NCBI GenBank assembly: GCA_045126595.1 | Contig: JBGVOS010000040.1 | Location: forward strand, 2,467 to 66,466 | DNA length: 64,000 nucleotides | Source: Bacteroidaceae bacterium | GTDB lineage: Bacteria > Bacteroidota > Bacteroidia > Bacteroidales > Bacteroidaceae | Direction of reading: 5' to 3' | Shown here: positions 2,388 to 64,000 of the stretch, piece by piece | Position numbering within the stretch: the first letter of the stretch is position 1 | Layout: each line of letters starts with the position of its first letter | Notes under the pieces: model-generated | Seen by the model: the letters and a program-made list of their open reading frames with translations, nothing else | What the model was told of the DNA's origin: nothing | The model's database searches: none | Made by a program: the position numbers and the translations under genes

Positions 2388-4505
2388 TTATACGAGGTCT
2401 GCACGTCCACCGTTCTCTTCGAGCACGGCCTTTGCAATCTGACGGCTTACTGCTGCGTGATGGTCGTAAGTCATGGTTGATGTAGCGCGACCAGAGGTGA
2501 TGCTACGGAGAGCGGTTACATAACCGAACATCTCTGCCAAGGGCACCTTAGCCTTTACTACACGAGCGCCTGAACGGCTGCTCTCCATACCCTCTACCTG
2601 ACCGCGACGCTTGTTCAGGTCACCGATAACGTCACCCATGTTCTCCTCGGGAGTAACAACCTCGAGACGCATGATGGGCTCCATGATCTGAGGAGCAGCC
2701 TTAGCGCATGCATTCTTGAAGGCCTGGATAGCGCAGATTTCGAATGACAGCTGGTCAGAGTCTACGGGGTGGAATGAACCATCGACGAGAGTAACCTTGA
2801 GTGAATCGAGGGGATAGCCACCGAGGATACCGTTACGCATAGCGGTCTGGAAGCCCTTCTGTACGGCGGGGATGAATTCGCTAGGAACGTTACCACCCTT
2901 CACCTCATTCACGAACTGAAGACCACCCTGTGTCCAATCCTCATCAACGGGACCAACCTTAACGATGATATCAGCGAACTTACCGCGACCACCTGACTGC
3001 TTCTTGTAAACCTCACGGAGCTCAACAGTCTGAGAGATTGCCTCCTTGTAGCTAACCTGGGGACGACCCTGGTTACACTCTACGTTGAACTCGCGCTTGA
3101 GACGGTCGATGATGATATCCAAGTGGAGCTCACCCATACCAGAGATTACGGTCTGACCAGTCTGCTCGTCGGTCTTAACGGTAAATGTGGGGTCCTCCTC
3201 GGCGAGCTTAGCCAAGCCGTTAGAGAGCTTGTCCACATCCTTCTGAGACTTGGGCTCTACAGCGATACCGATAACGGGATCGGGGAAGTCCATAGACTCG
3301 AGCATTACAGAGAGTGACTCATCGCAAAGAGTATCACCAGTGCGGATATCCTTGAAACCTACACCAGCACCGATATCACCGGCAGCGATGCAGTCAACGG
3401 GAGTCTGCTTGTTCGAGAACATCTGGAAGATACGTGATACGCGCTCCTTCTTACCAGAACGGGGGTTGTAAACGTATGAACCAGCGGTTACGCAACCAGA
3501 GTATACGCGGAAGAATACCAAACGACCTACATAGGGGTCAACGGCAATCTTAAATGCGAGGGCTGTGGTTTTCTCATCCTCCTGAGTCTTGAGCTCTACC
3601 ACGTCACCAGTAGAAGAGTCTGTGCACTCTACAGTAGGCTGGTCGATGGGTGAAGGCAAGAATGCGCAAACGTAGTCAAGCAAGGTCTGTACGCCCTTGT
3701 TCTTGAATGAAGAACCGCAGAGCATCGGAACGAGCTCCATCTTCAAGCAACCGATACGAGCACACTTGATGATCTCCTCCTCAGTTACTGAATCGGGATC
3801 GTCGAGGTACTTCATCATCACCTCGTCGTCGAACTCAGCTACCTTGTCGAGCAAGTTCTCACGCCATTTGATAGCCTCATCCATCATGTCAGCGGGAATC
3901 TCCTCTACAGAGTAGTCAGCACCCATGGTTTCATCGTGCCAGAGGATAGCCTTCATCTTGATAAGGTCAACTACACCCTTAAAGTTGAACTCAGCACCGA
4001 TAGGAATTACAACGGGGCAAGGATTAGCACCGAGAACGGTCTTCATCTGGTTTACCACGCTGTAGAAGTCAGCACCCTGACGGTCCATCTTATTTACATA
4101 AGCGATACGGGGTACGTTGTACTTATCAGCCTGACGCCATACAGTCTCCGACTGGGGCTCTACACCACCTACTGCACAGTAAGCAGCAACAGCACCATCA
4201 AGGATACGCAAGCAACGCTCTACCTCAGCGGTAAAGTCAACGTGTCCCGGGGTGTCGATAAGGTTGATCTTGTACTGAGTACCATTCCATTTCCAACGAG
4301 TGGTAGTAGCAGCCGATGTGATAGTGATACCACGCTCCTGCTCCTGAGCCATCCAGTCCATGGTAGCTGCACCATCGTGCACCTCACCAATCTTGTGAGT
4401 CAGACCGGTATAGAAAAGGATACGCTCTGATGTGGTAGTCTTACCAGCATCGATGTGCGCCATGATACCGATATTTCTCGTCAGTGATAAATCTTGTTTT
4501 GCCAT
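2388..4505 (-). CDS. fusA: Elongation factor G
   Basis: 705-aa ORF with G1 [17 protein letters not shown] and NKMD motifs. It lies downstream of rpsG. Confidence 0.97.
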
Positions 4506-4537: not shown

Positions 4538-5014
4538 TTAGAATCTGAAGTGAGCGAATGCACGGTTAGCCTCAGCCATGCGGTGCATATCCTCCTTACG
4601 CTTGAAGGCACCACCCTGGTTGTTGAATGCATCGAGAATCTCAGAAGAGAGCTTGTCAGCCATGGTCTTACCACCACGCTTGCGAGCGTAGAGGATCATA
4701 TTCTTCATGCTGATAGACTCCTTACGGTCAGCGCGGATCTCAGTGGGCACCTGATAGGTAGCACCGCCGATACGACGTGACTTAACCTCAACTTGGGGAG
4801 TAATGTTATCAAGGGCTTTCTTCCAGATTTCGAGAGCAGAGAGCTCAGAATCAGACATTTTTGCCTTCACCTTGTCGAGTGAAGCGTAAAAGATCTCGTA
4901 AGAGATGTTCTTCTTACCATCGTACATGAGATGGTTAACGAACTTAGATACTTTTACATCGTTAAATACGGGATCCGGAAGGACCATACGTTTTTTTGGT
5001 TTTGCTTTTCTCAT
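4538..5014 (-). CDS. rpsG: 30S ribosomal protein S7
   Basis: 158-aa [28 protein letters not shown], matching S7. Confidence 0.96.
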
Positions 5015-5213
5015 TTCTTTCTTGAAAAGTTTTTGTTTTCGTTTGGGGCTGCATTTTTGTTTTCTTCAACACCCACTCTTGGGCATTTACTCAACCTTTA
5101 TAGCTTATCCAACAAACCAAAACGTAGTTAATTTACTGTGTTTTTAAGTTTTGAGGGCTTTAACCTCAGACTGCGCACTTACGCAGCCGCGTTGATCAAT
5201 AAGCTGTTATGGC

Positions 5214-5594
5214 TTACTTCTTAGCTTTGGGGCGCTTAGCACCGTACTTAGAACGACGCTGGAGACGGTTAGCAACACCGGCGGTATCCAATGTACCACG
5301 AACGATGTGATAACGTACACCAGGGAGGTCCTTCACACGACCACCGCGTACCAATACGATTGAGTGCTCCTGCAAGTTGTGGCCTTCACCGGGGATGTAA
5401 GAGTTAACTTCCTTCTGGTTTGTCAAGCGCACACGTGCTACTTTTCTCATTGCTGAGTTAGGCTTCTTAGGTGTAGTTGTGTACACACGAGTGCAAACAC
5501 CACGACGCTGGGGACAGCTGTCCAAAGCGGGTGATTTGCTCTTGTCTGCAAGCACCTGTCTGCCTTTTCTAACTAATTGTTGAATTGTTGGCAT
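5214..5594 (-). CDS. rpsL: 30S ribosomal protein S12
   Basis: 126-aa [15 protein letters not shown]...PKKPNSA.RKV.RVRL.N, matching S12. Confidence 0.96.
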
Positions 5595-55630: not shown

Positions 55631-56498
55631 GGCGTAGAACTTTGTTGTAGAATTGATAAATACGATCTTTCCATCTTTTGAATCTGCGAATCTTGCAATC
55701 TAACCAAGCATATATCTTGTAACCTTTGTAACGCTTGTCCAATTCTTCGCTGCATTCATGGTATAATCCGTAACCTTCGTTTAGTTTTGTTCCCAACTCC
55801 ATTTTTTCCCAAAAAGATTTATTTTTAAAATCCATGTGGAAAATATAGTCTTTATTCCAATCTTTGCATTTTGCACTTAAGCCTCTTTCTTTGATGTCAT
55901 AAACCATTACGCACTCATTTGTGTAAGCTAGCTTATGTTGCCGCAAAAGTTTGAATATAGCCTCAAGGTCTTCGTATCGGGAGAACTCTTCGTTGTATAG
56001 ACTATTGTTCATAATAGAGCGTTTGTACAATGTAGTCCCTGCGCATAAACAAATAGAATGAAAATACCATGCGCGAAAGTTGTTACTTACAATGCCATTT
56101 TTCCATCGGTTGCATACGACTTTCCGCTCAACATCTTCTGTATAGAAATTTGCATGAGAAATAGGCACGCAATACTTATTGGCTGCTCCTATAAGTATGT
56201 CTAAAGCTTTGGGAAGAAAATAATCATCAGAGTCTAAAAATATAATCCATTCACCTCTGCTTTCCTTTATACCTTTGTTGCGGGCTGTGCTTGCACCCCC
56301 ATTCTCCTTATGGAATACTCGTACACGAGAGTCCTTCCCTGCATATTCATCACAGATAGCACCCGAAGAGTCGGTGCTGCCATCATCGACCAGTAGCAAC
56401 TCAAAGTCGGTATAGGTTTGGCCCAGGATGCTATCGATGCAGCGATGGAGATATTTCTCGGTATTGTAGACGGGGACGATGACTGAAATTATTGGCAT
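55608..56498 (-). CDS. Glycosyltransferase family 2
   Basis: Starts MPIISVIVPVYNTEKYLHRCIDSILGQTYTDFELLLVDDGSTD (cat at 56496-56498); DSDD motif. Confidence 0.88.
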   Translation of the reverse strand: MPIISVIVPVYNTEKYLHRCIDSILGQTYTDFELLLVDDGSTDSSGAICDEYAGKDSRVRVFHKENGGASTARNKGIKESRGEWIIFLDSDDYFLPKALDILIGAANKYCVPISHANFYTEDVERKVVCNRWKNGIVSNNFRAWYFHSICLCAGTTLYKRSIMNNSLYNEEFSRYEDLEAIFKLLRQHKLAYTNECVMVYDIKERGLSAKCKDWNKDYIFHMDFKNKSFWEKMELGTKLNEGYGLYHECSEELDKRYKGYKIYAWLDCKIRRFKRWKDRIYQFYNKVLRHENIPNV

Positions 56499-56732
56499 GA
56501 TTATAATGATGAACGAAAACACGCTTGCGTGTGATTAACGGTGAGCGGTGAGTGGTTAAAGGTTAAGGGGACAGCTTTGCTGTCGGGGTTAGGGGTTATG
56601 GGTAAGTAGTTAGTGGAGTCGCTGGTGCGAACGAAGACAGCTCCGCTGTACGAAGATATAATAAACGAAGATAACCGGAGGCTGTACGAAAACGGGAACA
56701 CGCGGAGCGGGTGATTTACGGTTAACGGAATA
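56499..56732. repeat. Mixed array (GGTGAGC/GGTTAAG heptamers, then hairpin+ACGAAGA units)
   Basis: gattaacggtgagcggtgagtggttaaaggttaagggg...acgaagaCAGCtccGCTGtacgaagatataataaacgaaga.... It separates the GT2 gene from darG. Confidence 0.85.
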
Positions 56733-57800
56733 TCAAATCATTTTATTCTGATTCAGATGATCAACAATCAATGAGATGTATTTGCTACCAGTGTAAATGC
56801 GTTGTTTGCGAGAGTTCCATGCAGATATATTATCGTTAATATACTCAATAAAAGAAACTTTATCTGAAATATCACAACGCGAGGCTGATTGCTCTTCGTT
56901 CAATATGTAATCAACCGTTGACAATAACTCCAACGAGTAGTTGGAATAATATCCACGCAGAAAGTCTTTCGTACGATTGGCAATATCACGATACGTCTTG
57001 TTCTCTGGTGATTCGAGGTACGATGTGATATACTGGGCTGTGTCATCAAGCAGCCAGAGGGCATCGAACGGCTTGTTCTGCATCCCTACCATCCCCTTGA
57101 TATAACTGCCGTTAAGATAATAGAGTACATGGGCAATCTTACCACCTGAATATGGGCCATAATATCCGCGAGTAAACTCAATCTTGAATATGTCTTTTGC
57201 TCCAAGACGTTGAAGGAAATATACAATCTTCTCCGCCGCAAAAACTGAAATAAACTCACCATACGACACCATATCGCATAACACATCAAGGAGCATTGCA
57301 CGAGCAGGAGTCAACTTTACGCGTTCTTCCTTCATCTTCTCCACAATAGCCATAGAAGGTTCATATATACGGATATCGCAGTCAAGATCACCCAGTGAAT
57401 CGATAATCATCTTTTTTACACGAGACCAGTCAAGGCCTCCATTATGAGAGCCAAGAGGGGGGATAGCTATGGAACGTATACCTAATTCCTGTATCTTGCT
57501 TCTCAAAGCGATAAGTCCTGATTCTATATATGCATATTCTGATGGTTTGCGCCAAGTGGTCTTGGTCGGGAAATTGATGATCAGTTTATCCCCATCAAGG
57601 CGCTTGTTCTCTGTGATGAGAAGCTGGCCTACGGTCAACATACCCTCTTTACAGGCTCTGCGATAGATGCTATAGTTCTCCGGAAAACGCTCCTTGAACT
57701 GCAACGCAATACCCTTACCCATAACCCCTACAGTATTCACCGTATTTACCAAGGCTTGGGCATCATCCATGAGCAAATCGCCTTTTATATAGGTAATCAT
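56733..57800 (-). CDS. darG: DarG-type macrodomain antitoxin (ADP-ribosyl-DNA glycohydrolase + C-terminal DarT-binding domain)
   Basis: The N-terminal macrodomain is ITYIKGDLL...ALVNTVNTVGVMGKGIALQFKERFP...IAIPPLGSHNGGL. It lies 2 nt downstream of darT. Confidence 0.85.
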   Translation of the reverse strand: MITYIKGDLLMDDAQALVNTVNTVGVMGKGIALQFKERFPENYSIYRRACKEGMLTVGQLLITENKRLDGDKLIINFPTKTTWRKPSEYAYIESGLIALRSKIQELGIRSIAIPPLGSHNGGLDWSRVKKMIIDSLGDLDCDIRIYEPSMAIVEKMKEERVKLTPARAMLLDVLCDMVSYGEFISVFAAEKIVYFLQRLGAKDIFKIEFTRGYYGPYSGGKIAHVLYYLNGSYIKGMVGMQNKPFDALWLLDDTAQYITSYLESPENKTYRDIANRTKDFLRGYYSNYSLELLSTVDYILNEEQSASRCDISDKVSFIEYINDNISAWNSRKQRIYTGSKYISLIVDHLNQNKMI

Positions 57801-57802
57801 AA

Positions 57803-58414
57803 TCAGTAATAATAATCTGAGTTAACAACAATTAGATTAACATCGATACCATAATGAATCAACCTTTGTTTAGCCAGTTCATTATAGACAACATATCCAC
57901 AGATATAGTTTGGCGAAAGCGCGTTCCTAATCAACAATTCTGCCTCTTTACGTCGTTTAAGGTCTGTATCTGTTTCGCTAATCCAATACTTTGCGTAAAC
58001 CTCATCATAAGAAACGATACTGTTTATCTCAGTAAGCTTGTCGTGTGTATAGAAATCCGTGAGTGCACTTAACGCATGCCCATCAGTAAAAAGACATTCA
58101 ACATTATCAGCTATCAACTCTTCTATTTTTATCACACAATATACTATGTCTTCTGGATTCTGCTTTTCCACCCCATTATATCCATGCTGAATAACATATA
58201 GCATCACCGAACGTGGACCAAAATAAAATGGAATATACTGCGCCAAATCATACCCCTTTATCTTCGTAGCCCTTTTCCCTATAACCTCTCTGTCACCTAT
58301 AGACTTATAGGTAGAACTAGCAAATTCTGAGCCAGGAAGCACAAAACCCGTTTCACTGATATAAGGGATATTATCAATGTGGGTGATTCTGAATCCGTAA
58401 CGTATTTTATTCAC
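57803..58414 (-). CDS. darT: DarT (DUF4433) ssDNA ADP-ribosyltransferase toxin
   Basis: FRITHIDNIPYI, YIPFYFGPRSVMLYVI, FTDGHA and RRKEAELLI align motif-for-motif with characterised DarT (YHITHIDNL / VPFYFCPRSPMLYAI / FTDRHA / KKQAEFLV) as I recall it. Confidence 0.88.
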   Translation of the reverse strand: MNKIRYGFRITHIDNIPYISETGFVLPGSEFASSTYKSIGDREVIGKRATKIKGYDLAQYIPFYFGPRSVMLYVIQHGYNGVEKQNPEDIVYCVIKIEELIADNVECLFTDGHALSALTDFYTHDKLTEINSIVSYDEVYAKYWISETDTDLKRRKEAELLIRNALSPNYICGYVVYNELAKQRLIHYGIDVNLIVVNSDYYY

Positions 58415-58496
58415 TACGGTTAAGGGTGTGGTAGTTAAGGATGAGCACTGAAAGGACAGCCGGAGTCTGGGATTAACGTGTAAATGATTAATGCTC
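58415..58496. repeat. Short array-type spacer (GGTTAAG-like) between darT and the DUF3791 gene
   Basis: cggttaagggtgtggtagttaaggatgagc ... gattaacgtgtaaatgattaatg. Confidence 0.6.
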
Positions 58497-58715
58497 TCAA
58501 CCCATAACGCCGGTCAATAATTCGTGCTCAAGGAACGAATATACATATTTCGGACTCTGATAATACAAACCTGTGTTCTTGTCGCGAAGTTTTATGTAGG
58601 TGTCCGAGGTATATACCGTATCTATGGCCTCTTGAAAGGATAGATTTCTCTTTTCCATAAGTAGCGTGGTCAATTCCGCTGCTATGTACTCTACCATATA
58701 TTCTATGTCGTTCAT
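58497..58715 (-). CDS. DUF3791-like small protein
   Basis: 72-aa ORF overlapping the upstream gene by 4 nt (ATGA). It is the partner type that usually accompanies DUF3990. The family assignment is from memory. Confidence 0.6.
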   Translation of the reverse strand: MNDIEYMVEYIAAELTTLLMEKRNLSFQEAIDTVYTSDTYIKLRDKNTGLYYQSPKYVYSFLEHELLTGVMG

Positions 58716-59185
58716 AGTTTAGATAAGTGTGAAATGGATCTCTCTGTTCCGAAAAAGTACTGAAAGGTTATACCCTTGAAGTATTTTATCCGATGAAGGA
58801 ACTCTCCCATGTCTATGCTCCCTTCTGTCAACTTCTGCATTTGGAGTCCAATCTTGTCGTTGGCTATCGGACCGTATATCACATCATACTCATCTTGCAA
58901 AAATTCGGATTCTTCTCTGTTTTTGAATACAAATTTTGCCCATTCTTCTGAATATGAATCAAAGGATAGGTATCGCAATGTGCCATCCGATAGTTTGCGT
59001 TCGTCAAAACTGAATGAAGTGACTATAGGAGTGCCACCCAATGCCATGGTACGTAGGGAAGCCATTTGCTCGGCCTGCTGTAAATCGGCAGACAGGTAAA
59101 AACCTCTTCCAAAATCCTTGAAAGGTTTTGATTTTAGCAACTCTATATTGTTTATTTCAACGTTGCTGCCATGATAAAGTATCAT
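58712..59185 (-). CDS. DUF3990-like protein with PARP-like H-Y-E motifs (candidate ADP-ribosyltransferase fold)
   Basis: 157-aa ORF with LYHGS (res 3-7), GRGFYLSAD (26-34) and DEYDVIYG (98-105). It has 4-nt overlaps with both neighbours. Confidence 0.65.
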   Translation of the reverse strand: MILYHGSNVEINNIELLKSKPFKDFGRGFYLSADLQQAEQMASLRTMALGGTPIVTSFSFDERKLSDGTLRYLSFDSYSEEWAKFVFKNREESEFLQDEYDVIYGPIANDKIGLQMQKLTEGSIDMGEFLHRIKYFKGITFQYFFGTERSISHLSKL

Positions 59186-59409
59186 ACGATGCCTCCTCCT
59201 TGACGTTTCATATAATTGACTAGCATATCCATCGCATCAGAAAAACTAAGAGTATGCATGATGTCATAATGCTTGTCTACCATATCTACTCCTCCATAAC
59301 GCTTCACATAGCGATATGACTGTAGTACGTTCAAATTATGCCACTTGGCGAAGTGTGATATGAGTGACATCAGATATTCTGCCTTGTCTCTAATTATAGA
59401 TCTTTCCAT
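59182..59409 (-). CDS. DUF3791-like small protein
   Basis: 75-aa ORF containing ...YDIMHTLSFSDAMDMLVNYMKRQGG. It is the first gene of a translationally coupled three-gene operon. Confidence 0.6.
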   Translation of the reverse strand: MERSIIRDKAEYLMSLISHFAKWHNLNVLQSYRYVKRYGGVDMVDKHYDIMHTLSFSDAMDMLVNYMKRQGGGIV

Positions 59410-59470
59410 ACGATATTTATATTCATAGGCAAAGTAACAAATAATTTAGTTGACCTCCTATGCTTTTAAC

Positions 59471-59854
59471 CATTTTTGAGGATACGATTAACGAGTAACG
59501 AAGACAGCTGCGCTATACGATGATATAATAAACGAAGATAGCCGGAGGTTGTACGAAGAGCGACAAGCGCTACGAAAATAGCCTTTGGCTATACGAAAAT
59601 ACTAAACAGTACGATGGGTTATTGTTTTCTTAGGGTTCTTATCAATCGGCTTAGCTGACACTCTATAGAGGTGACAGACGAATTTAAGGCTTCATAGCCT
59701 TCGTACTGCCTCGGCAGTATTTGTTATCGTTATTATTGCTTTTCGTGCATCGTGCGCGCTTTGCGTGCCTTCGTACAGCTTTAGCTGTCTTTGTAGCGGA
59801 TCACCGCTCTTCGTGCACTCCGTGCCTTCGTTGTCACTTTGCTCGCAAAGTGAC
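59471..59854. repeat. ACGAAGA-array | four-helix-bundle gene remnant | TTCGT-array, ending in a 10-bp perfect hairpin
   Basis: The left part contains ...aacgaagacagctgcgctatacgatgatataataaacgaaga...TAGCCtttGGCTAtacgaaaa. The right part contains cttcgt-ACTGCCtcGGCAGT, cttcgt-ACAGCTttAGCTGT, cttcgt-GCACtccGTGC and GTCACTTTGCtcGCAAAGTGAC. Confidence 0.85.
59619..59675 (-). pseudogene. 3'-terminal remnant of a second four-helix-bundle (Avd-like) gene
   Basis: ttattgttttcttagggttcttatcaatcggcttagctgacactctataga matches ttattgtttccttaaggttctaatcaatcgacttagttggcactcgataga at 47147-47197, roughly 85% identity by eye. It would encode ...SIECQLSRLIRTLRKQ*. The rest of the ORF is missing. Confidence 0.7.
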
Positions 59855-60028
59855 ATACCTCTGGGGCTTAGACTAATTCATAATCGCATAAGAATCAGCC
59901 TATTAGATAGCAACAGCGTGTTAATTTCTCTATGCATAAGAGAAGTTTGGTGTAAAGATACGTGTTTATATTTGATTTTCATACTTTTTAACGATTTATT
60001 TTGAGGGGAAGGGTGAGCAGCCGCGTTC

Positions 60029-60158
60029 GTGTCATCTCGAGCGAATGCGAGAGATCTCGTAAAGTCTCTTGAAATATAATCTCCAGTCCCAGCGTGAGAT
60101 CCTTGACTTCAGCCCCTTCGGGCGTCGACCTAAAGGTTCACTTCGTTCAGGATGACAC
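60029..60158. repeat. REP/MITE-like palindromic element (130 bp)
   Basis: gtgtcatctcgagcgaatgcgagagatctcgtaaag ... gtcccagcgtgagatcc ... cacttcgttcaggatgacac. The internal gtcccagcg.gagatcc segment is shared with the copy at 34578. Confidence 0.75.
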
Positions 60159-60174
60159 GGAGAGCCCCTACCTC

Positions 60175-60236
60175 CTTAACCCTTCACCTTTTAACCCTTA
60201 ACCTTTAACCCTTCACCTTTAACCCTTAACCCTTTC
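60175..60236. repeat. C-orientation GGTTAAG/GGTGAAG-type array
   Basis: cttaacccttcaccttttaacccttaacctttaacccttcacctttaacccttaaccctttc, abutting the VirE-like stop codon. Confidence 0.85.
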
Positions 60237-60237
60237 A

Positions 60238-62454
60238 TCACTCCAAAGCGCTGAGGCGGGCGGTCTCCTGCTGGCGTAGCTTGATGTCGGTGTGGGTGAG
60301 CAGGATGACATTCCATCCACGTATGTTGTCATGACGGCGGGGCTGGTAGCCCAGGCGGTTCATCCAGATGGCGATGGTGCGCGGCAGGAGTGGGGTCTTC
60401 ACACCGATGTTGATGGTCTCGATGATACGTGTGGCGGTGTAGAACTCGCCCACCTCGTGCGGCTCGGGACGGCGGAAGTAGGTCTGTATGAGCTCACACT
60501 CCATGTTGGGTTCCTCGAAGTGGTGGTTGTGGCACTCGAGCTCGGCATTCTCCTCGGCGGTAAACCAATAGGGGAATCCTTCACACCATAGGGCATAGGC
60601 CTGGGCATAGAGGCCCTCGTAGGGGATGGGATGATCGTAGGGCGAGTCGATGCTGTCGACCATGAAGGGGAGCCAGCGACGGTTGCCGGTGAGGTCGGTG
60701 AGGAAGCGGGGGTTGTTGCCCGTGGCACAGAACGAGGCGATATGTTCGCGACGCTCGCGGTAACGGGCATAGGCGGCACGCTCGTTCACCGAAGGGTCGG
60801 TGGTGAGGGCCTTGAGCTGGTTGAGCGCGCGAGGCTTCAGGTTGTCGAGCTCCTCGAGGGCGATGAGGGCCATCTCGGTGAGCTCCAGACGGTCGTCCCT
60901 GTCCATGCGATGGGCAAAGTTGCGGGCCGAGAAGTAATCGCGCAGCACGGGAGGTAGCAGGTGGCGCATGAAGGTACTCTTGAAGATACCTTGCGAACCG
61001 ATATAGGTGAGTATCTCGTGGTTGGTCTTGTCGGGATCGAACCATGCCGCCACCATGCCTACAAACCACTTCCTGAAGTAGCGGTTGTGCATCTCCTGCG
61101 AGCAGCCGGTGACATGGACGCGAGAGGCGAGCTCTTCGATGTAGTCGTATCCATCCCACGGGGAAAGGCTGGTCATATACTCGCGCATGGGGTGGTACTC
61201 GGGGTAGAAATCGCTCTCGATGATGATGTAGAGGTCGGAGAGACGCAGCCTACGGCCGGTGTCGAGGGAGAAGGCGCGGTAGAGCGAGTGGACGTGGCGG
61301 TCGGTGAGCTCGGACCATAGTAACGATGACGAAAACGAAGACGAAGACTTTTTCTCCAATTTATCATCGTTATGGTCATCGTACAGCTCTTGGGCGGTGG
61401 TGGCTGGCGGTGGACAATGGGTACCTATCTCCCACTTGCGACTGATGACGTTGTGGCGTATGCGGACCTCCTTCTGGGTGAGGTAGTCCTGTATCTCGGC
61501 TACCGTGGCACAGCTGTCTTTCTTCTCACGAGGCAACTGCCGAGTGGCATGCTCGGTGGTCTGCTGGTAGCAGGAGCGGACGATGGAGGCGACGTCGTTG
61601 CCCGCAGCGGCATAGTCGGTAAAGCGGGCAAGGGCCCATGCCGTACAGTCGGTCTCGGACACTCCGTAGCGGTTCATCAGGTAGCAGGCCTGCGAGATGT
61701 AGCGGTTGTGCTCGCCGGGGATGTAGCATACGCCACGGCGCTCCAGCTGCTCGCAGACATGCGACTCGGCAGCCTCGGCCGTACGCACCTGGCGTGGACG
61801 ACCCGAAGGGCGCTTGGCCTCGAGCTGCACCTCGAAGGGCACAGCAGCAGGGTTGTAATGGAGCGTGGGATCATAGGCGGCGCCCGACAGACGGGTGGCA
61901 TTCTTGCACAAGGGGTCGGTGGCAAGGCCGGTGAGGGTCTCGTAGTAGGCGTTGACCTGAAGGAAGGCGGACTTGTACTCGGGGAATGAGGAGCGGTGAA
62001 CGGGAAACGGGGAGGGGGCAGCGGGGAGCGGATGAGCGGTTAGAGGGTGAGCGGATGAGGGGTGAGCGGGGAGCGTATACCGCGCCACGACACGCACGCC
62101 CTGTCCCGAGATGGTGGTATAGGCAAGCAGGGTGTGGGGGTCGTGGCCGACGAGCGTCAACACGCGCGGCATATCGTCGGGCGACACGTGGTCGATATCG
62201 ACGAGGGTGAGCCCGGTGAAGGCGGCGATATGGTCCTTGCGCTTGCCACCCTCGAAGCGTACGGCCACGCTGAAGCAGGGCATGCGGCGTTTGTAATGCT
62301 GGGCACCGGCCTTATCGCCGATACTGCGATAGTAGCGGTGCTTGTCGGTGAGGTCACGTAGCGAAGCGTCGGTGCGCATCATCTCTACCAGAGCGTCGAG
62401 CTCGATGGGCATGGGGGACTCGTCGGTCCACCCGTTGAAAAGGGATAGTTGCAT
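60238..62454 (-). CDS. VirE/primase-like protein (BT4734-type N-terminal domain + VirE P-loop domain)
   Basis: 738-aa ORF. The N-terminus ...MPCFSVAVRFEGGKRKDHIAAFTGLTLVDIDH is typical of the BT4734-like domain. The C-half resembles virulence-associated protein E. Two low-complexity in-frame inserts are present. Confidence 0.75.
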   Translation of the reverse strand: MQLSLFNGWTDESPMPIELDALVEMMRTDASLRDLTDKHRYYRSIGDKAGAQHYKRRMPCFSVAVRFEGGKRKDHIAAFTGLTLVDIDHVSPDDMPRVLTLVGHDPHTLLAYTTISGQGVRVVARYTLPAHPSSAHPLTAHPLPAAPSPFPVHRSSFPEYKSAFLQVNAYYETLTGLATDPLCKNATRLSGAAYDPTLHYNPAAVPFEVQLEAKRPSGRPRQVRTAEAAESHVCEQLERRGVCYIPGEHNRYISQACYLMNRYGVSETDCTAWALARFTDYAAAGNDVASIVRSCYQQTTEHATRQLPREKKDSCATVAEIQDYLTQKEVRIRHNVISRKWEIGTHCPPPATTAQELYDDHNDDKLEKKSSSSFSSSLLWSELTDRHVHSLYRAFSLDTGRRLRLSDLYIIIESDFYPEYHPMREYMTSLSPWDGYDYIEELASRVHVTGCSQEMHNRYFRKWFVGMVAAWFDPDKTNHEILTYIGSQGIFKSTFMRHLLPPVLRDYFSARNFAHRMDRDDRLELTEMALIALEELDNLKPRALNQLKALTTDPSVNERAAYARYRERREHIASFCATGNNPRFLTDLTGNRRWLPFMVDSIDSPYDHPIPYEGLYAQAYALWCEGFPYWFTAEENAELECHNHHFEEPNMECELIQTYFRRPEPHEVGEFYTATRIIETINIGVKTPLLPRTIAIWMNRLGYQPRRHDNIRGWNVILLTHTDIKLRQQETARLSALE

Positions 62455-62457
62455 GGA

Positions 62458-62768
62458 GGTTAGGGTTTAGGGTTTAGGGTTTAGAGTTTAGTGTTTAGGG
62501 TGTAGGGTTTAGGGTGTAGGGTGTAGGGTGTAGAGTGTAGAGTTTAGTGTTTAGGGTGTAGGGTGTAGGGTTTAGGGTTTAGGGTGTAGAGTTTAGAGTT
62601 TAGGGTTTAGTGTTTAGAGGTTAGGGGGTAGGGTTTAGAGGTTAGGGTTTAGTGTTTAGGGTTTAGAGTTTAGTGTTTAGGGTGTAGGGTGTAGGGTTTA
62701 GGGGTTAGTGTTTAGGGGTTAGGGTTTAGGGACCGTTAACCGTTAACCGCTCACCGCTCACCGTTAAT
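62458..62768. repeat. ~270-bp degenerate heptamer array (TTTAGGG/TGTAGGG/TTTAGAG/TTTAGTG, roughly 40 units) followed by CCGTTAA/CCGCTCA heptamers
   Basis: Read directly from the sequence. It begins 4 nt upstream of the VirE-like start codon. It includes runs such as GGGtgtaGGGtttaGGGtgtaGGGtgtaGGG. Confidence 0.92.
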
Positions 62769-62881
62769 CACTCCAAAGGTAGGGGGAATATTTCAGGGGC
62801 GTTACCCCATATGTGGGGCAATAACTTTATATTTGCCAACATCTTTTTAGAATCATTAACAAATAAACGCTGCACACACGT

Positions 62882-63143
62882 ATGAAACTTACTCATCCCT
62901 GCCCGCTGGGCACCTTTATCGTAGGGGAGCGCATGGCGCTCGGCTGCCCTGTCAAGACCTTCTGCCGCGAATGTGGTATCACCGTGAAGACCTATTACCG
63001 TCTGTTGGGGGGAAAAAGCTACGCTCACGAGCTATGCTAAGGTAATAGACTACCTATACTATGCCCACCAACCGGACGAACGGGCCAACTTTGCCATGGC
63101 ATTCGTGAGGGCTTTCATGCCACTGCGCCACGGCTGCCACTAA
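62882..63143 (+). pseudogene. Small HTH-like gene interrupted by a frameshift in a G6A5 homopolymer tract
   Basis: The frame from the ATG at 62882 gives MKLTHPCPLGTFIVGERMALGCPVKTFCRECGITVKTYYRLLGGKSYAHELC* (stop at 63038). The +1 frame continues from the tract at 63007-63017 as ...GEKATLTSYAKVIDYLYYAHQPDERANFAMAFVRAFMPLRHGCH* (stop at 63141). One fewer G fuses them. A TAtaTTTG box sits at 62828-62835. Confidence 0.45.
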
Positions 63144-63284
63144 CTTTTACACCCCTTATAGGGAGAAAATAAATATCAATATATAATAGTATCACGATAT
63201 ATACCTATTATATCGACTATAGGGAGTCGCCCCGCGCGGGCCGACCGTGGCGTTGTGGCAGGGAAGCGGGGAGCGGGGAACGGC

Positions 63285-63390
63285 CCCTACACCCTAACCC
63301 CTAAACACTACACACTAAACCCTACACACTAAACCCTAAACCCTAAACACTAAACTCTAAACCCTAAACTCTAAACACTACACGCTAAAC
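63285..63390. repeat. Heptamer array in the opposite (CCCTAAA/CACTAAA/CACTACA) orientation
   Basis: cctacaccctaacccctaaacactacacactaaaccctacacactaaaccctaaaccctaaacactaaactctaaaccctaaactctaaacactacacgctaaac. It is inverted relative to 62458-62731. Confidence 0.9.
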
Positions 63391-63403
63391 AAAAAAAACA
63401 ATG

Positions 63404-63497
63404 GAGTGAACGCCGAAAATCACTCTACTGCTTTTCGGAAAACAATAGAGTGAACTTCAAAAATCAGTAGAGTGATTTTTAGAAAACATTAGAGCGA
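63404..63497. repeat. Iteron-like GAGTGA motifs phased at 22 nt
   Basis: GAGTGA at 63404, 63448 and 63470, and GAGCGA at 63492. An inverted copy (tcactc) sits at 63420-63425. Each lies in a shared context aacaatRgagtgaac / gtagagtgat / ttagagcgat. Confidence 0.7.
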
Positions 63498-63500
63498 TTT

Positions 63501-63707
63501 TCACGGCTCGCCCAGGTACTCGAAGATAATCTGTACCTGACGACGGGTGAGGCGGCGCGAGGCACGCTGGTAGCCCACGCGCTCGAGGGCGGGCAGCAGG
63601 CCGTGGGCCGAAGTGATGTACTTGTGTAACAGGCGCAGGGCCGAGGAGCGCGGGGCACCAGGGAAGTAGAGCTGGGCAAGGTCGCTCTTGGTTAATGATT
63701 GTATCAT
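63501..63707 (-). CDS. DUF4248 domain-containing protein
   Basis: 68-aa ORF ...LTKSDLAQLYFPGAPRSSALRLLHKYI......L.ALERVGY....R.LT.RQV..IFEYLGEP, the DUF4248 pattern commonly found next to VirE-like genes at Bacteroidales capsule loci. Confidence 0.75.
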   Translation of the reverse strand: MIQSLTKSDLAQLYFPGAPRSSALRLLHKYITSAHGLLPALERVGYQRASRRLTRRQVQIIFEYLGEP

Positions 63708-63852
63708 CTGTGAACCTACTTTTACCCTATAAAATTACAAAAAAATTGCGAGACGAGCAACGGATAAGAACTTTATTTTCAACAATTTCAAAAGTAATCT
63801 ACAGAACTTACGTTATCTCTCATCTGCGGAACGAGAGGGTGATAGGATGTAG

Positions 63853-63940
63853 TACCTTTGCAATAGAAATAAAGAGGGTAACACCTCTTTTGAGTCCTTG
63901 GCCAGGACTTGTAATGTGGGCGCCCACATTACTTTCTATT
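63853..63940 (+). ncRNA. Candidate small RNA: TAccTTTG box, three consecutive hairpins, the last followed by TTTCTATT
   Basis: Box at 63853-63860. Hairpins are aaagagg/cctcttt (63871-63890), agtcc..ggact (63893-63909) and the 22-nt palindrome gtaatgtgggcgcccacattac (63911-63932). No convincing ORF covers this region. Confidence 0.3.
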
Positions 63941-64000
63941 GTGAGTAACGGCTGCGCCTCGGCATAATTCATGCAAGCATGATTCTGCTCTCGGCTTGCT

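Follow-up and report, generated by a model that had tools for sequence, protein, structure and literature searches.

The closest described counterpart of the locus analysed here is PADLOC family PDC-M13, one of 145 untested candidates that were predicted by their embedding in BREX, DISARM or type I restriction-modification systems (Payne et al., bioRxiv 10.1101/2024.01.29.577857). PDC-M13 was called 3,324 times in 6,530 rumen genomes and ranks with the commonest predicted defence loci of gut and rumen Bacteroidales (PMC13356809). DUF3990, the family of its middle protein in our locus, was already listed by Pfam in the ADP-ribosyltransferase (ART) clan (PMC7955679), and it forms the variable C-terminal domain of some Rhs proteins (PMC4524185, PMC10763514). 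The H-Y-[QED] lineage of ARTs is defined by a catalytic triad placed on strands β1, β2 and β5, and NADases with atypical active sites exist among ART-like folds (PMC13285283).

Our literature search found no functional work on DUF3990, DUF3791, PF13151, PDC-M13 or ART-PolyVal. The initial annotation of this DNA had stated that the function of the module lacked experimental proof, and the absence of experimental work on DUF3990 and DUF3791 in our search agreed with it. The novelty that it implied was not upheld, because both the Pfam ART clan and PDC-M13 preceded it. The three-gene set is already catalogued as an anti-phage candidate, and the idea is not new.

The locus and its variable chromosomal slot

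In the window (the whole 64,000-nt stretch of DNA that was analysed), the locus consists of three genes on the minus strand: gene A (59182..59409), coding for a DUF3791 protein of 75 aa, gene B (58712..59185), coding for a DUF3990 protein of 157 aa with a predicted ART fold and the putative triad H5-Y30-D101, and gene C (58497..58715), coding for an acidic protein of 72 aa outside any Pfam family. The stop codon of A and the start codon of B overlap in the sequence ATGA on the minus strand at 59182..59185, and those of B and C overlap in the same way at 58712..58715; both were read directly from the sequence, where the plus strand has TCAT. The coordinates of the three minus-strand reading frames and of their 4-nt overlaps had been given correctly in the initial annotation, and so had the AT-rich character of the operon (39.6% GC, vs 49.2% for the window). 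In related loci, too, A and B are most often spaced by a -4 overlap (47 cases), and 64 of 83 B-C junctions have one as well. Scanning of positions 56400-60100 for sigma-70 promoters and terminators gave counts no higher than those in shuffled sequence, with a method that is ill-suited to Bacteroidota promoters. In 56000-64000, Rfam gave a single match, to a plant miRNA; it scored below the threshold, lies in a tandem repeat and was taken as chance.

The three genes lie directly beside DarT-DarG (56733..58414, minus strand), as had been noticed earlier from the sequence. DarT (58414-57803) and DarG (57800-56733), located 82 bp downstream, were assigned by matches to the NCBIfam equivalogs toxin_DarT and antitoxin_DarG. 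A 61-nt direct repeat flanks both modules, with the left copy at 56630..56690, the distal edge of the slot, and the right copy, built of ACGAAG/hairpin units, at 59497..59557. The two copies are 92% identical (chance expectation 0). The proposal that the two modules share one repeat-flanked island was correct as to the flanking repeat, but not as to the island, which separated into two cassettes in related strains.

The cassette carrying the three genes (58454..59494, minus strand) was delimited by comparison with other strains (blastn vs L001-L006). It is roughly 1 kb long, and contigs whose flanks differ carry it at 98.5-99.3% identity. Contigs with the three genes only matched the window down to 58454, contigs with DarTG only matched it from 58491, and the window segment 58491-56665 was 99.2% identical in strains lacking the three genes. 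The 38-bp junction at 58454..58491 thus belongs both to the three-gene cassette, at its 3' end, and to the DarTG cassette, at its 5' end. DarTG was absent from contigs encoding an identical B protein, and the three genes were absent from contigs encoding an identical DarT. Related strains have a single repeat copy at the distal slot edge, which in L092 and L005 lies just before glycosyltransferase genes. We considered the 61-nt repeat as an att-like island boundary and rejected this, preferring a local repeat motif together with two independent cassettes.

The adjacency of DarTG to the three genes is strain-specific, and because each occurs without the other, we see no functional or evolutionary link between them. 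The PDC-M13 module is open to study apart from DarTG. In related strains the same slot has one or the other of the two cassettes alone, and its occupants there include, besides DarTG, an SpbK-like TIR protein (E 1e-29) and an AbiL-like ATPase (E 5e-88). This chromosomal slot is a defence hot spot.

The ART-fold protein and its small partners

Gene B matched Pfam DUF3990 (PF13151) with E 1.5e-42 and a score of 145.2 bits (cut-off 32.2), bearing out its assignment to this family; residues 1-155 aligned with profile positions 1-151 of 152. The match to the PADLOC model PDC-M13B was equally clear (E 6.5e-43). The AlphaFold2 model of B (pLDDT 94.1, pTM 0.87) was then compared with known structures by Foldseek, the comparison with PARP/ART folds that had been proposed for the 157-aa protein. 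It recovered the ART fold: all 12 best matches in the PDB were ART-fold proteins, headed by the RES toxin 9r35_D (E 2e-3, prob 1.0) and including ParT (6d0h/6d0i, TM 0.53-0.55), exotoxin A, tankyrase and PARP1. Another of these 12, typhoid toxin (4k6l_G), matched only in part, over 78 aligned columns (TM 0.22, prob 0.20). In the viral library one match reached E 1.7e-12 (TM 0.80), and the next were ART-PolyVal proteins with E 3e-6 and weaker. The model of B has the ART fold, including the split β-sheet.

The E-values against the PDB were marginal, with a best value of 2e-3 and TM of about 0.5. Some homologues of B had sub-threshold Pfam matches to ART-PolyVal (E 1.3e-5) and PARP (E 1.7e-3), and the window protein itself had no PARP match in Pfam. 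Sequence searches of the PDB with the single sequences of A, B and C and with a 61-sequence profile of B gave nothing meaningful. Two possible relatives of B were dismissed: BLASTP of B against DarT showed no sequence similarity that would make it a DarT paralogue (E 0.07), and Tne5, a recently characterised Rhs ART toxin, belongs to a different family.

The initial annotation had described a PARP-like H-Y-E motif set in B, composed of LYHGS (H5), GRGFYLSAD (Y30) and DEYDVIYG (E99). All three motifs were found in the protein, and its histidine and tyrosine were borne out by conservation, H5 in 263 of 263 homologues on strand 2-7 (β1) and Y30 in 265 of 266 on strand 29-32 (β2). The glutamate was not: position 99 was occupied by D in 90, K in 50, E in only 28, Q in 25 and N in 21 of the 272 homologues, while D101, immediately before strand 102-106 (β5 start), was conserved in 270 of 272. 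The family-invariant residues of B were H5, D24, Y30, R90 and D101. Because Glu99 is unconserved, while His5, Tyr30 and Asp101 are near-invariant on β1, β2 and β5, the conservation pattern indicates that the triad is H-Y-D (H5, Y30, D101), not PARP-type H-Y-E. Their strand positions suggest that the three residues cluster in space. H5, Y30 and D101, instead of E99, are the residues worth mutating.

Gene A was confirmed as a DUF3791 gene by its match to PF12668 (E 6e-18, 65 bits, gathering cut-off 25), and it also matched the PDC-M13A model (E 2e-14). Its AlphaFold2 model (pLDDT 92.5) contains helices at residues 2-23, 28-37, 40-51 and 56-69, and the product is predicted to be a four-helix bundle. 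A fold search of the PDB with this model gave nothing significant (best E 4.5), leaving a relationship to antitoxin or helix-turn-helix domains unsupported, and similarity of A to known antitoxins or DNA-binding domains was undetected. We propose A as an antitoxin or regulatory partner.

The third gene had also been assigned to DUF3791, an assignment that failed. Gene C had no Pfam match even at E<=10, and profile-profile alignment of A and C by hhalign gave a probability of 6%. These two results ruled out that C is a divergent member of DUF3791. Some faint similarity persists, in that the C profile matched the A half of a fusion protein secondarily and weakly (domain E 0.008). The product of C has a pI of 4.6 (family median 4.5) and matched PDC-M13C with E 1.2e-18. 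On this sequence evidence, C appears to be a separate acidic family without a Pfam model, and the partners of B would then come from two different families, not from one duplicated family.

Distribution, association and lesions of the three genes

In the collection of species-representative genomes, relatives of B are encoded at no fewer than 572 loci, and the three-gene set is conserved across hundreds of bacterial species. A, B and C co-occurred in about 95% of 80 species examined. The adjacent order A-B-C was found for 79 of 90 DUF3990 ORF matches at 86 loci, and the non-adjacent cases were mostly disrupted B genes. A permuted order, B-C-A, occurred on Moraxella plasmids between hsdM and hsdS of a type I restriction-modification operon. 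This pattern indicates that A and C are obligate partners of B.

All three pairwise fusions occur in nature. The B-C fusion was represented by eight protein clusters of longer DUF3990 proteins, in whose C-terminal ~65 residues the gene C profile matched (E 5e-22 to 4e-9); the one contig inspected, that of P0159, has a separate A gene upstream. A C-A fusion of 149 aa is encoded on a B. fragilis plasmid, and an A-B fusion was found in P0268. As Rosetta-stone fusions, B-C, A-B and C-A would imply that the partners bind, and natural fusions of this kind would show which of A, B and C contact one another. The two flanking proteins of ~75 aa had been taken as partners of the middle one, and this was borne out by A (75 aa) and C (72 aa), both of which co-occur with B and are found fused with it. 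The architecture of small genes with 4-nt overlaps would suit a putative type II toxin-antitoxin system.

Gene B carried nonsense or frameshift lesions in 6 of the 80 species, with A and C intact. No lesions in A were seen, and one locus (L062) was without gene C. The excess of lesions in B (about 6 vs 1, p about 0.06, in genomes that are mostly metagenome-assembled) is only suggestive.

DUF3990 was found in 87 plasmid records, 28 of them conjugative, and on one plasmid the module lies beside an epsilon/zeta-type (zeta-toxin) pair. The 140 genes that directly flank the three-gene set in the 80 species were mostly housekeeping genes, with a handful matching defence models. The enrichment in defence islands that had been suggested as a check gave no clear signal among these immediate neighbours, and neither DarT nor DarG ranked with the neighbour families seen most often around the loci of the 80 species.

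Proposed mechanism, alternatives and known systems

We consider it rather probable that the locus is a self-contained tripartite toxin-antitoxin or abortive-infection module of PADLOC family PDC-M13. The effector would be the ART-fold product of gene B, which belongs to the H-Y-[QED] lineage and carries His5 on β1, Tyr30 on β2 and Asp101 where β5 begins. It would bind NAD+, and then either hydrolyse it or use it to ADP-ribosylate an essential macromolecule. A and C would bind B and each other, keeping B inactive in a ternary complex, and the coupled translation of the three genes may help to hold their stoichiometry. When a phage infects or the cassette is lost, the complex would be upset and B set free, leading to growth arrest or abortive infection. 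The computations support the fold, the conserved triad, the obligate association of the three parts and their place in a defence hot spot; in this scheme the toxicity of B, its neutralisation, the trigger, the target and the choice between transferase and NADase are what we infer.

A toxin or defence role for the three genes is plausible. In calling the locus a second NAD-dependent toxin or defence module, the initial annotation was plausible in view of the hot spot, the restriction-modification embedding, the plasmids and the Rhs proteins, and mistaken as to its novelty. A model with a simple labile antitoxin does not accommodate the fusions in which B is tethered to C or to A. Somewhat more tentatively than the module itself, we suggest that two small helical proteins, unrelated or very distantly related, jointly gate an H-Y-D ADP-ribosyltransferase in an obligate ternary complex, C acting as a sensor in cis or in trans and A as a releasable inhibitor, and that such loci form a distinct, widespread class of NAD-dependent toxin systems. 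If this is true, tripartite gating would amount to a new mechanism of abortive infection, one common among Bacteroidales of the gut, with a target perhaps unseen for bacterial ARTs.

The same biochemistry could serve pure addiction or stabilisation, in which a toxin-antitoxin maintains plasmids and variable chromosomal cassettes without anti-phage activity. The 87 plasmid records with their 28 conjugative members and the copy beside an epsilon/zeta-type pair are in line with this, as are the mostly housekeeping neighbours in the 80 species and a ~1-kb cassette that remains 98.5-99.3% identical across different flanks. We nevertheless consider it unlikely, because the module is found embedded in a type I restriction-modification operon, shares its chromosomal slot with DarTG, SpbK-like TIR and AbiL-like cargo, and belongs to a family retrieved by the PADLOC guilt-by-embedding screen. 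That the module is an offensive or anti-defence effector derived from a phage or another element, akin to ART-PolyVal, instead of a host defence, is very improbable. Of the named proteins in the viral library, those nearest in fold are indeed ART-PolyVal proteins, and DUF3990 homologues of 28-31% identity occur in phages, but in only 7 of 50,697 phage records, and the window copy is chromosomal, lies outside any prophage and belongs to a three-gene set spread over hundreds of bacterial species.

Other readings concern the chemistry of B and the extent of the system. The rifampin ART (Arr) has an H-Y-D triad that gene B resembles, and B, being small, might be an Arr-like transferase acting on small molecules, for example inactivating an antibiotic, or another non-toxic NAD-utilising enzyme with A and C as accessory subunits. 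B gave a partial fold match to Arr-2 (E 3.5, 65 columns, 25% identity) and one to a phage 'Rifampin ADP-ribosyl transferase' (prob 0.99, 70 columns). Both, however, are partial and fall behind the matches to RES, ParT and ART-PolyVal in strength, B has no Arr match in Pfam, and a toxin agrees better with the obligate partners, the Rhs C-termini, the restriction-modification embedding and the nonsense mutations that recur in B, making this reading improbable. There is hardly any chance that B is a PARP-type H-Y-E enzyme with a catalytic Glu99: its string E-Y-D-V-I-Y resembles the E-Y-I-V-Y of PARP, but the residue distribution at position 99 and the near-invariant D101 at the β5 start contradict it. 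The least probable alternative joins the three genes and DarTG into one five-gene system or repeat-bounded mobile island, in which, for example, DarG would reverse the modification made by B. The 82 bp gap, the common strand and the 61-nt repeat around both are outweighed by the identical B without DarTG and the identical DarT without the three genes, by junctions that define two cassettes, by the absence of DarT and DarG from the frequent neighbour families, and by the single repeat copy that is normal at the slot edge in related strains.

If the activity of the tripartite module is shown, the toxin-antitoxin and defence field would gain a new ART toxin, its target and a three-part regulatory logic. 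The advance would be incremental and not a conceptual surprise, because ART toxins, NAD-dependent defence and the candidate status of the family are already established.

Compared with PDC-M13, the window locus shows no structural difference and is an ordinary member: all three proteins match the A, B and C models and are encoded by contiguous, overlapping genes. Also related is the two-gene PADLOC candidate PDC-M10: gene B matches PDC-M10A, and PDC-M10B is matched in its C-terminal part by gene C. The PDB folds that match B best (9r35_D, 6d0h, 6d0i) come from the Xre-RES, MbcTA and ParST systems, whose toxins are likewise small ART-fold proteins (about 150 aa) held in check by a small helical protein. 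The likeness to them is at the level of the fold, as RES toxins have an R-E-S signature in contrast to the H-Y-D of B, and B has no Pfam RES match. RES systems have one partner, whereas two are present here, and gene A has no fold match to their antitoxins. The ART-PolyVal family (PF18760), whose sequence matches in B homologues stayed below the gathering score, comprises predicted ARTs within giant multidomain polyvalent proteins of phages and conjugative elements, while B is a stand-alone protein of 157 aa with two partners. CapRel-type proteins are fused toxin-antitoxin defence proteins, and the placement of C at the C-terminus of DUF3990 proteins in eight clusters resembles their cis-acting regulatory or sensor domain in architecture only, without homology. 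DarTG, inherited independently of the three genes in the same defence slot, likewise has an ART-superfamily effector of H-Y-[QED]-type lineage, but DarT is neutralised by a macrodomain enzyme, whereas B is accompanied by two small non-enzymatic helical partners.

Gene layout and the predicted active site of gene B

The triad is transcribed from the minus strand (59409-58497) and consists of gene A (59409-59182, 75 aa), gene B (59185-58712, 157 aa) and gene C (58715-58497, 72 aa). The plus strand reads TCAT at 59182-59185 and 58712-58715, thus both the A/B and the B/C junctions are ATGA stop/start overlaps, and the three reading frames and two overlaps of the initial annotation were borne out by the sequence. 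Its description of the operon as AT-rich also stood, with a GC content of 39.6% for the triad against 49.2% for the entire window (DarTG, 40.1%; adjoining glycosyltransferase genes, 36.8%). The order DUF3791-DUF3990-DUF3791 was confirmed by Pfam for A (DUF3791, E 6e-18) and B (DUF3990, E 1.5e-42), but not for C, which had no Pfam match even at E<=10.

The structure of B was predicted with AlphaFold2 from an alignment of 61 diverse homologues with 31-77% identity to B (pLDDT 94.1, pTM 0.87). As anticipated from the sequence, the model was of the ADP-ribosyltransferase (ART) fold: the top 12 Foldseek matches in the PDB were all ART-fold proteins, including the RES toxin 9r35_D (E 2e-3, prob 1.0), ParT (6d0h and 6d0i, TM 0.53-0.55), exotoxin A domain III, tankyrase and PARP1. 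Typhoid toxin 4k6l_G, also among these 12, matched only in part (78 aligned columns, TM 0.22, prob 0.20). Among predicted viral structures, B most closely resembled an unnamed phage protein (E 1.7e-12, TM 0.80); several ART-PolyVal proteins came next, at E 3e-6 or weaker. In sequence, Pfam matches below threshold linked some DUF3990 homologues with ART-PolyVal (E 1.3e-5) and with the catalytic domain of PARP (E 1.7e-3).

B does contain LYHGS, GRGFYLSAD and DEYDVIYG, the strings that had been read as a PARP-like H-Y-E motif with Glu99 as the acid. When residue conservation was counted over 272 homologues, H5 (263/263) and Y30 (265/266) were conserved, but position 99 varied (D 90, K 50, E 28, Q 25, N 21), and the conserved acid was D101 (270/272). 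D24 was present in every non-gap sequence, R90 in 271/272 and Q142 in 257/259. The strands of the model comprise residues 2-7, 29-32, 54-60, 72-74, 102-106, 141-145 and 154-156, and D101 directly precedes strand 102-106. H, Y and D therefore map to β1, β2 and β5, the sites where ART triads are placed (triad definition from PMC13285283), and H5, Y30 and D101 would cluster in space. On the predicted structure, B is an ART of the H-Y-[QED] lineage with Asp as the acid, not of the PARP-type H-Y-E class.

Partner proteins and the three-part association

A and C are, as judged from sequence comparison, members of different families: phmmer matches common to both numbered 0/86, and hhalign of A against C gave a probability of 6%. 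The C family is acidic throughout, with a median pI of 4.5; A ranges from neutral to basic. A was modeled confidently as a four-helix protein (pLDDT 92.5) with no significant relative in the PDB.

We compared 86 loci, 80 from a scan of species-representative genomes and six contigs with an identical B protein. A-like and C-like ORFs were present in 86/86, and both directly adjoined B in 79 of 90 DUF3990 ORF matches; the remaining matches were mostly disrupted B genes. Spacing was mostly the -4 overlap. In Moraxella osloensis plasmids the order was permuted to B-C-A, and the set lay inside a type I restriction-modification operon, with hsdM on one side and hsdS on the other. All three pairwise fusions were found: eight protein clusters join B to C (E 5e-22 to 4e-9 against the C profile), a 149-aa protein encoded ahead of B on a conjugative plasmid of B. 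fragilis joins C to A, and the homologue cluster P0268 joins A to B (DUF3791 E 0.0019 on an N-terminal extension). A, B and C are inseparable as components, and the fusions argue that they form one complex. From the B-C fusions, C may be a regulatory or sensor domain tethered to B. For the B-C fusion cluster P0159, the single contig inspected has a separate A gene upstream. A may be a releasable inhibitor.

B was broken in 6/80 species-representative genomes with A and C intact, by one in-frame stop (L015, L025, L045, L056, L080) or by a frameshift (L060), each lesion falling around locus position 5000-5470; C was absent from one locus only (L062). With target sizes alike, this asymmetry is a suggestive but inconclusive sign that B may be toxic (p about 0.06). 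The genomes are mostly metagenome-assembled.

The two-gene version on the B. fragilis plasmid (NZ_CP054001.1, 3555-5615), the C-A fusion followed by DUF3990, directly adjoins an epsilon-like/zeta-toxin pair. A DUF3791-DUF3990 pair also occurs on plasmids of ~98 kb that many Bacteroides and Parabacteroides species have in common; like this version, it matches B over residues 1-142 at ~31% identity. A Prevotellaceae genome (L020) has a second, divergent DUF3990 gene at 2400-3200 with an A-like ORF upstream, 2 kb from its main triad; thus one genome can carry two paralogous systems side by side.

The slot, DarTG and surrounding repeats

DarT (58414-57803) and DarG (57800-56733), both minus strand and assigned by NCBIfam equivalog models, begin 82 bp downstream of the triad. 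The adjacency reported initially is real, but the linkage is not: of 22 contigs with the identical B protein, the six compared carry the triad without DarTG, and the triad is missing from contigs that code for the identical DarT. Alignment to other strains resolved a triad cassette (59494-58454, 98.5-99.3% identity) and a DarTG cassette (58491-56665, 99.2%) with a common 38-bp junction (58454-58491), and by these alignments the triad-DarTG association is not conserved.

Both occupy a slot bounded on one side by a VapE-like/BT4734-like gene (60238-62454) and on the other by the first glycosyltransferase gene of a polysaccharide locus. The slot's content in related strains (L005, L091-L096) was DarTG alone, the triad alone, or DarTG accompanied by a PIN_3 pair, by an SpbK-like TIR protein (E 1e-29), or by an AbiL-like ATPase (E 5e-88) plus a 154-aa protein, with junction sequences common across variants (window 56665-60002). 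This varied cargo indicates that the slot is a hot spot for defence and toxin-antitoxin cassettes.

A 61-nt direct repeat (56630-56690 and 59497-59557, 92% identity), previously taken to flank a single island, was rejected as its boundary, because it is made of local ACGAAG/hairpin units and one copy is normally present at the slot's distal edge in related strains. On the minus strand, 59700-59850 is an array of mini-hairpins with stems of 4-6 bp and an ACGAAG after every hairpin; the same unit recurs in opposite orientation at 59490-59600, and the 61-nt repeat is composed of such units. This region (59490-59850) had no Rfam match, and an exact 19-mer gave no match in loci L001-L086.

Plant-telomere-type heptamers form inverted arrays at 62460-62731 (TTTAGGG, ~39 copies) and 63285-63390 (CCCTAAA, ~15 copies), with arms of up to 123 nt, 83-88% complementary and ~515 nt apart; shorter related arrays lie at the slot's other intergenic boundaries (60174-60234, 56520-56620). 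One possibility is that the arrays mark DNA prone to inversion or recombination, lying upstream of the polysaccharide locus. The VapE-like ORF has 738 aa in this strain and 714 aa in related contigs. It contains a 7-nt GGAGCGG-like repeat (61990-62075, ~12 copies) encoding a low-complexity Pro/Ala/His/Ser stretch, a tract that may vary or be prone to slippage. Just upstream of a DUF4248-like ORF (63501-63707) are tandem repeats with units of 44 and 22 nt (63395-63503); within them is the region's only Rfam match, plant MIR395 (29.7 bits against a gathering score of 56), probably by chance.

Candidate function and relation to known systems

We lean towards the triad being a tripartite toxin-antitoxin-like or abortive-infection module, a reading that we place just on the likely side. 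The effector would be B, acting as an ART that depends on NAD+ or as an NADase; A and C would hold it inactive in a ternary complex, and a trigger would free it. A toxin-antitoxin module serving addiction only is unlikely. Beyond this lineage, the triad's surroundings were mixed: immediate neighbours in 80 species were mostly housekeeping genes with few defence matches, and 87 plasmids and 7 phage records had DUF3990 modules.

An Arr-like ART acting on small molecules is very improbable, and an offensive effector of phage type, to be set beside the viral structure matches of B, even more so. The H-Y-E reading keeps H5 and Y30 but loses its acid, and we give it very little credence. Least probable of all is the triad working jointly with DarTG, which the short gap would favor and the separate cassettes argue against.

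DUF3990 has already been placed in the Pfam ART clan (PMC7955679). T6SS-associated Rhs proteins of Serratia and Enterobacter carry it as their variable C-terminal domain (PMC4524185, PMC10763514), a possible sign of toxicity. The proposal of a candidate ART toxin or defence module holds as an idea but not as a novelty, and what changes is the acid (D101 in place of E99), the removal of C from DUF3791 and the loss of the DarTG link. The literature search found no reported function for DUF3990 or DUF3791. A, B and C all matched the PADLOC models PDC-M13 A, B and C; PDC systems are 145 phage-defence candidates predicted by guilt-by-embedding (bioRxiv 10.1101/2024.01.29.577857), and in rumen genomes PDC-M13 is one of the most frequent calls (PMC13356809). 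On these grounds, the locus is an ordinary member of the catalogued candidate family PDC-M13.
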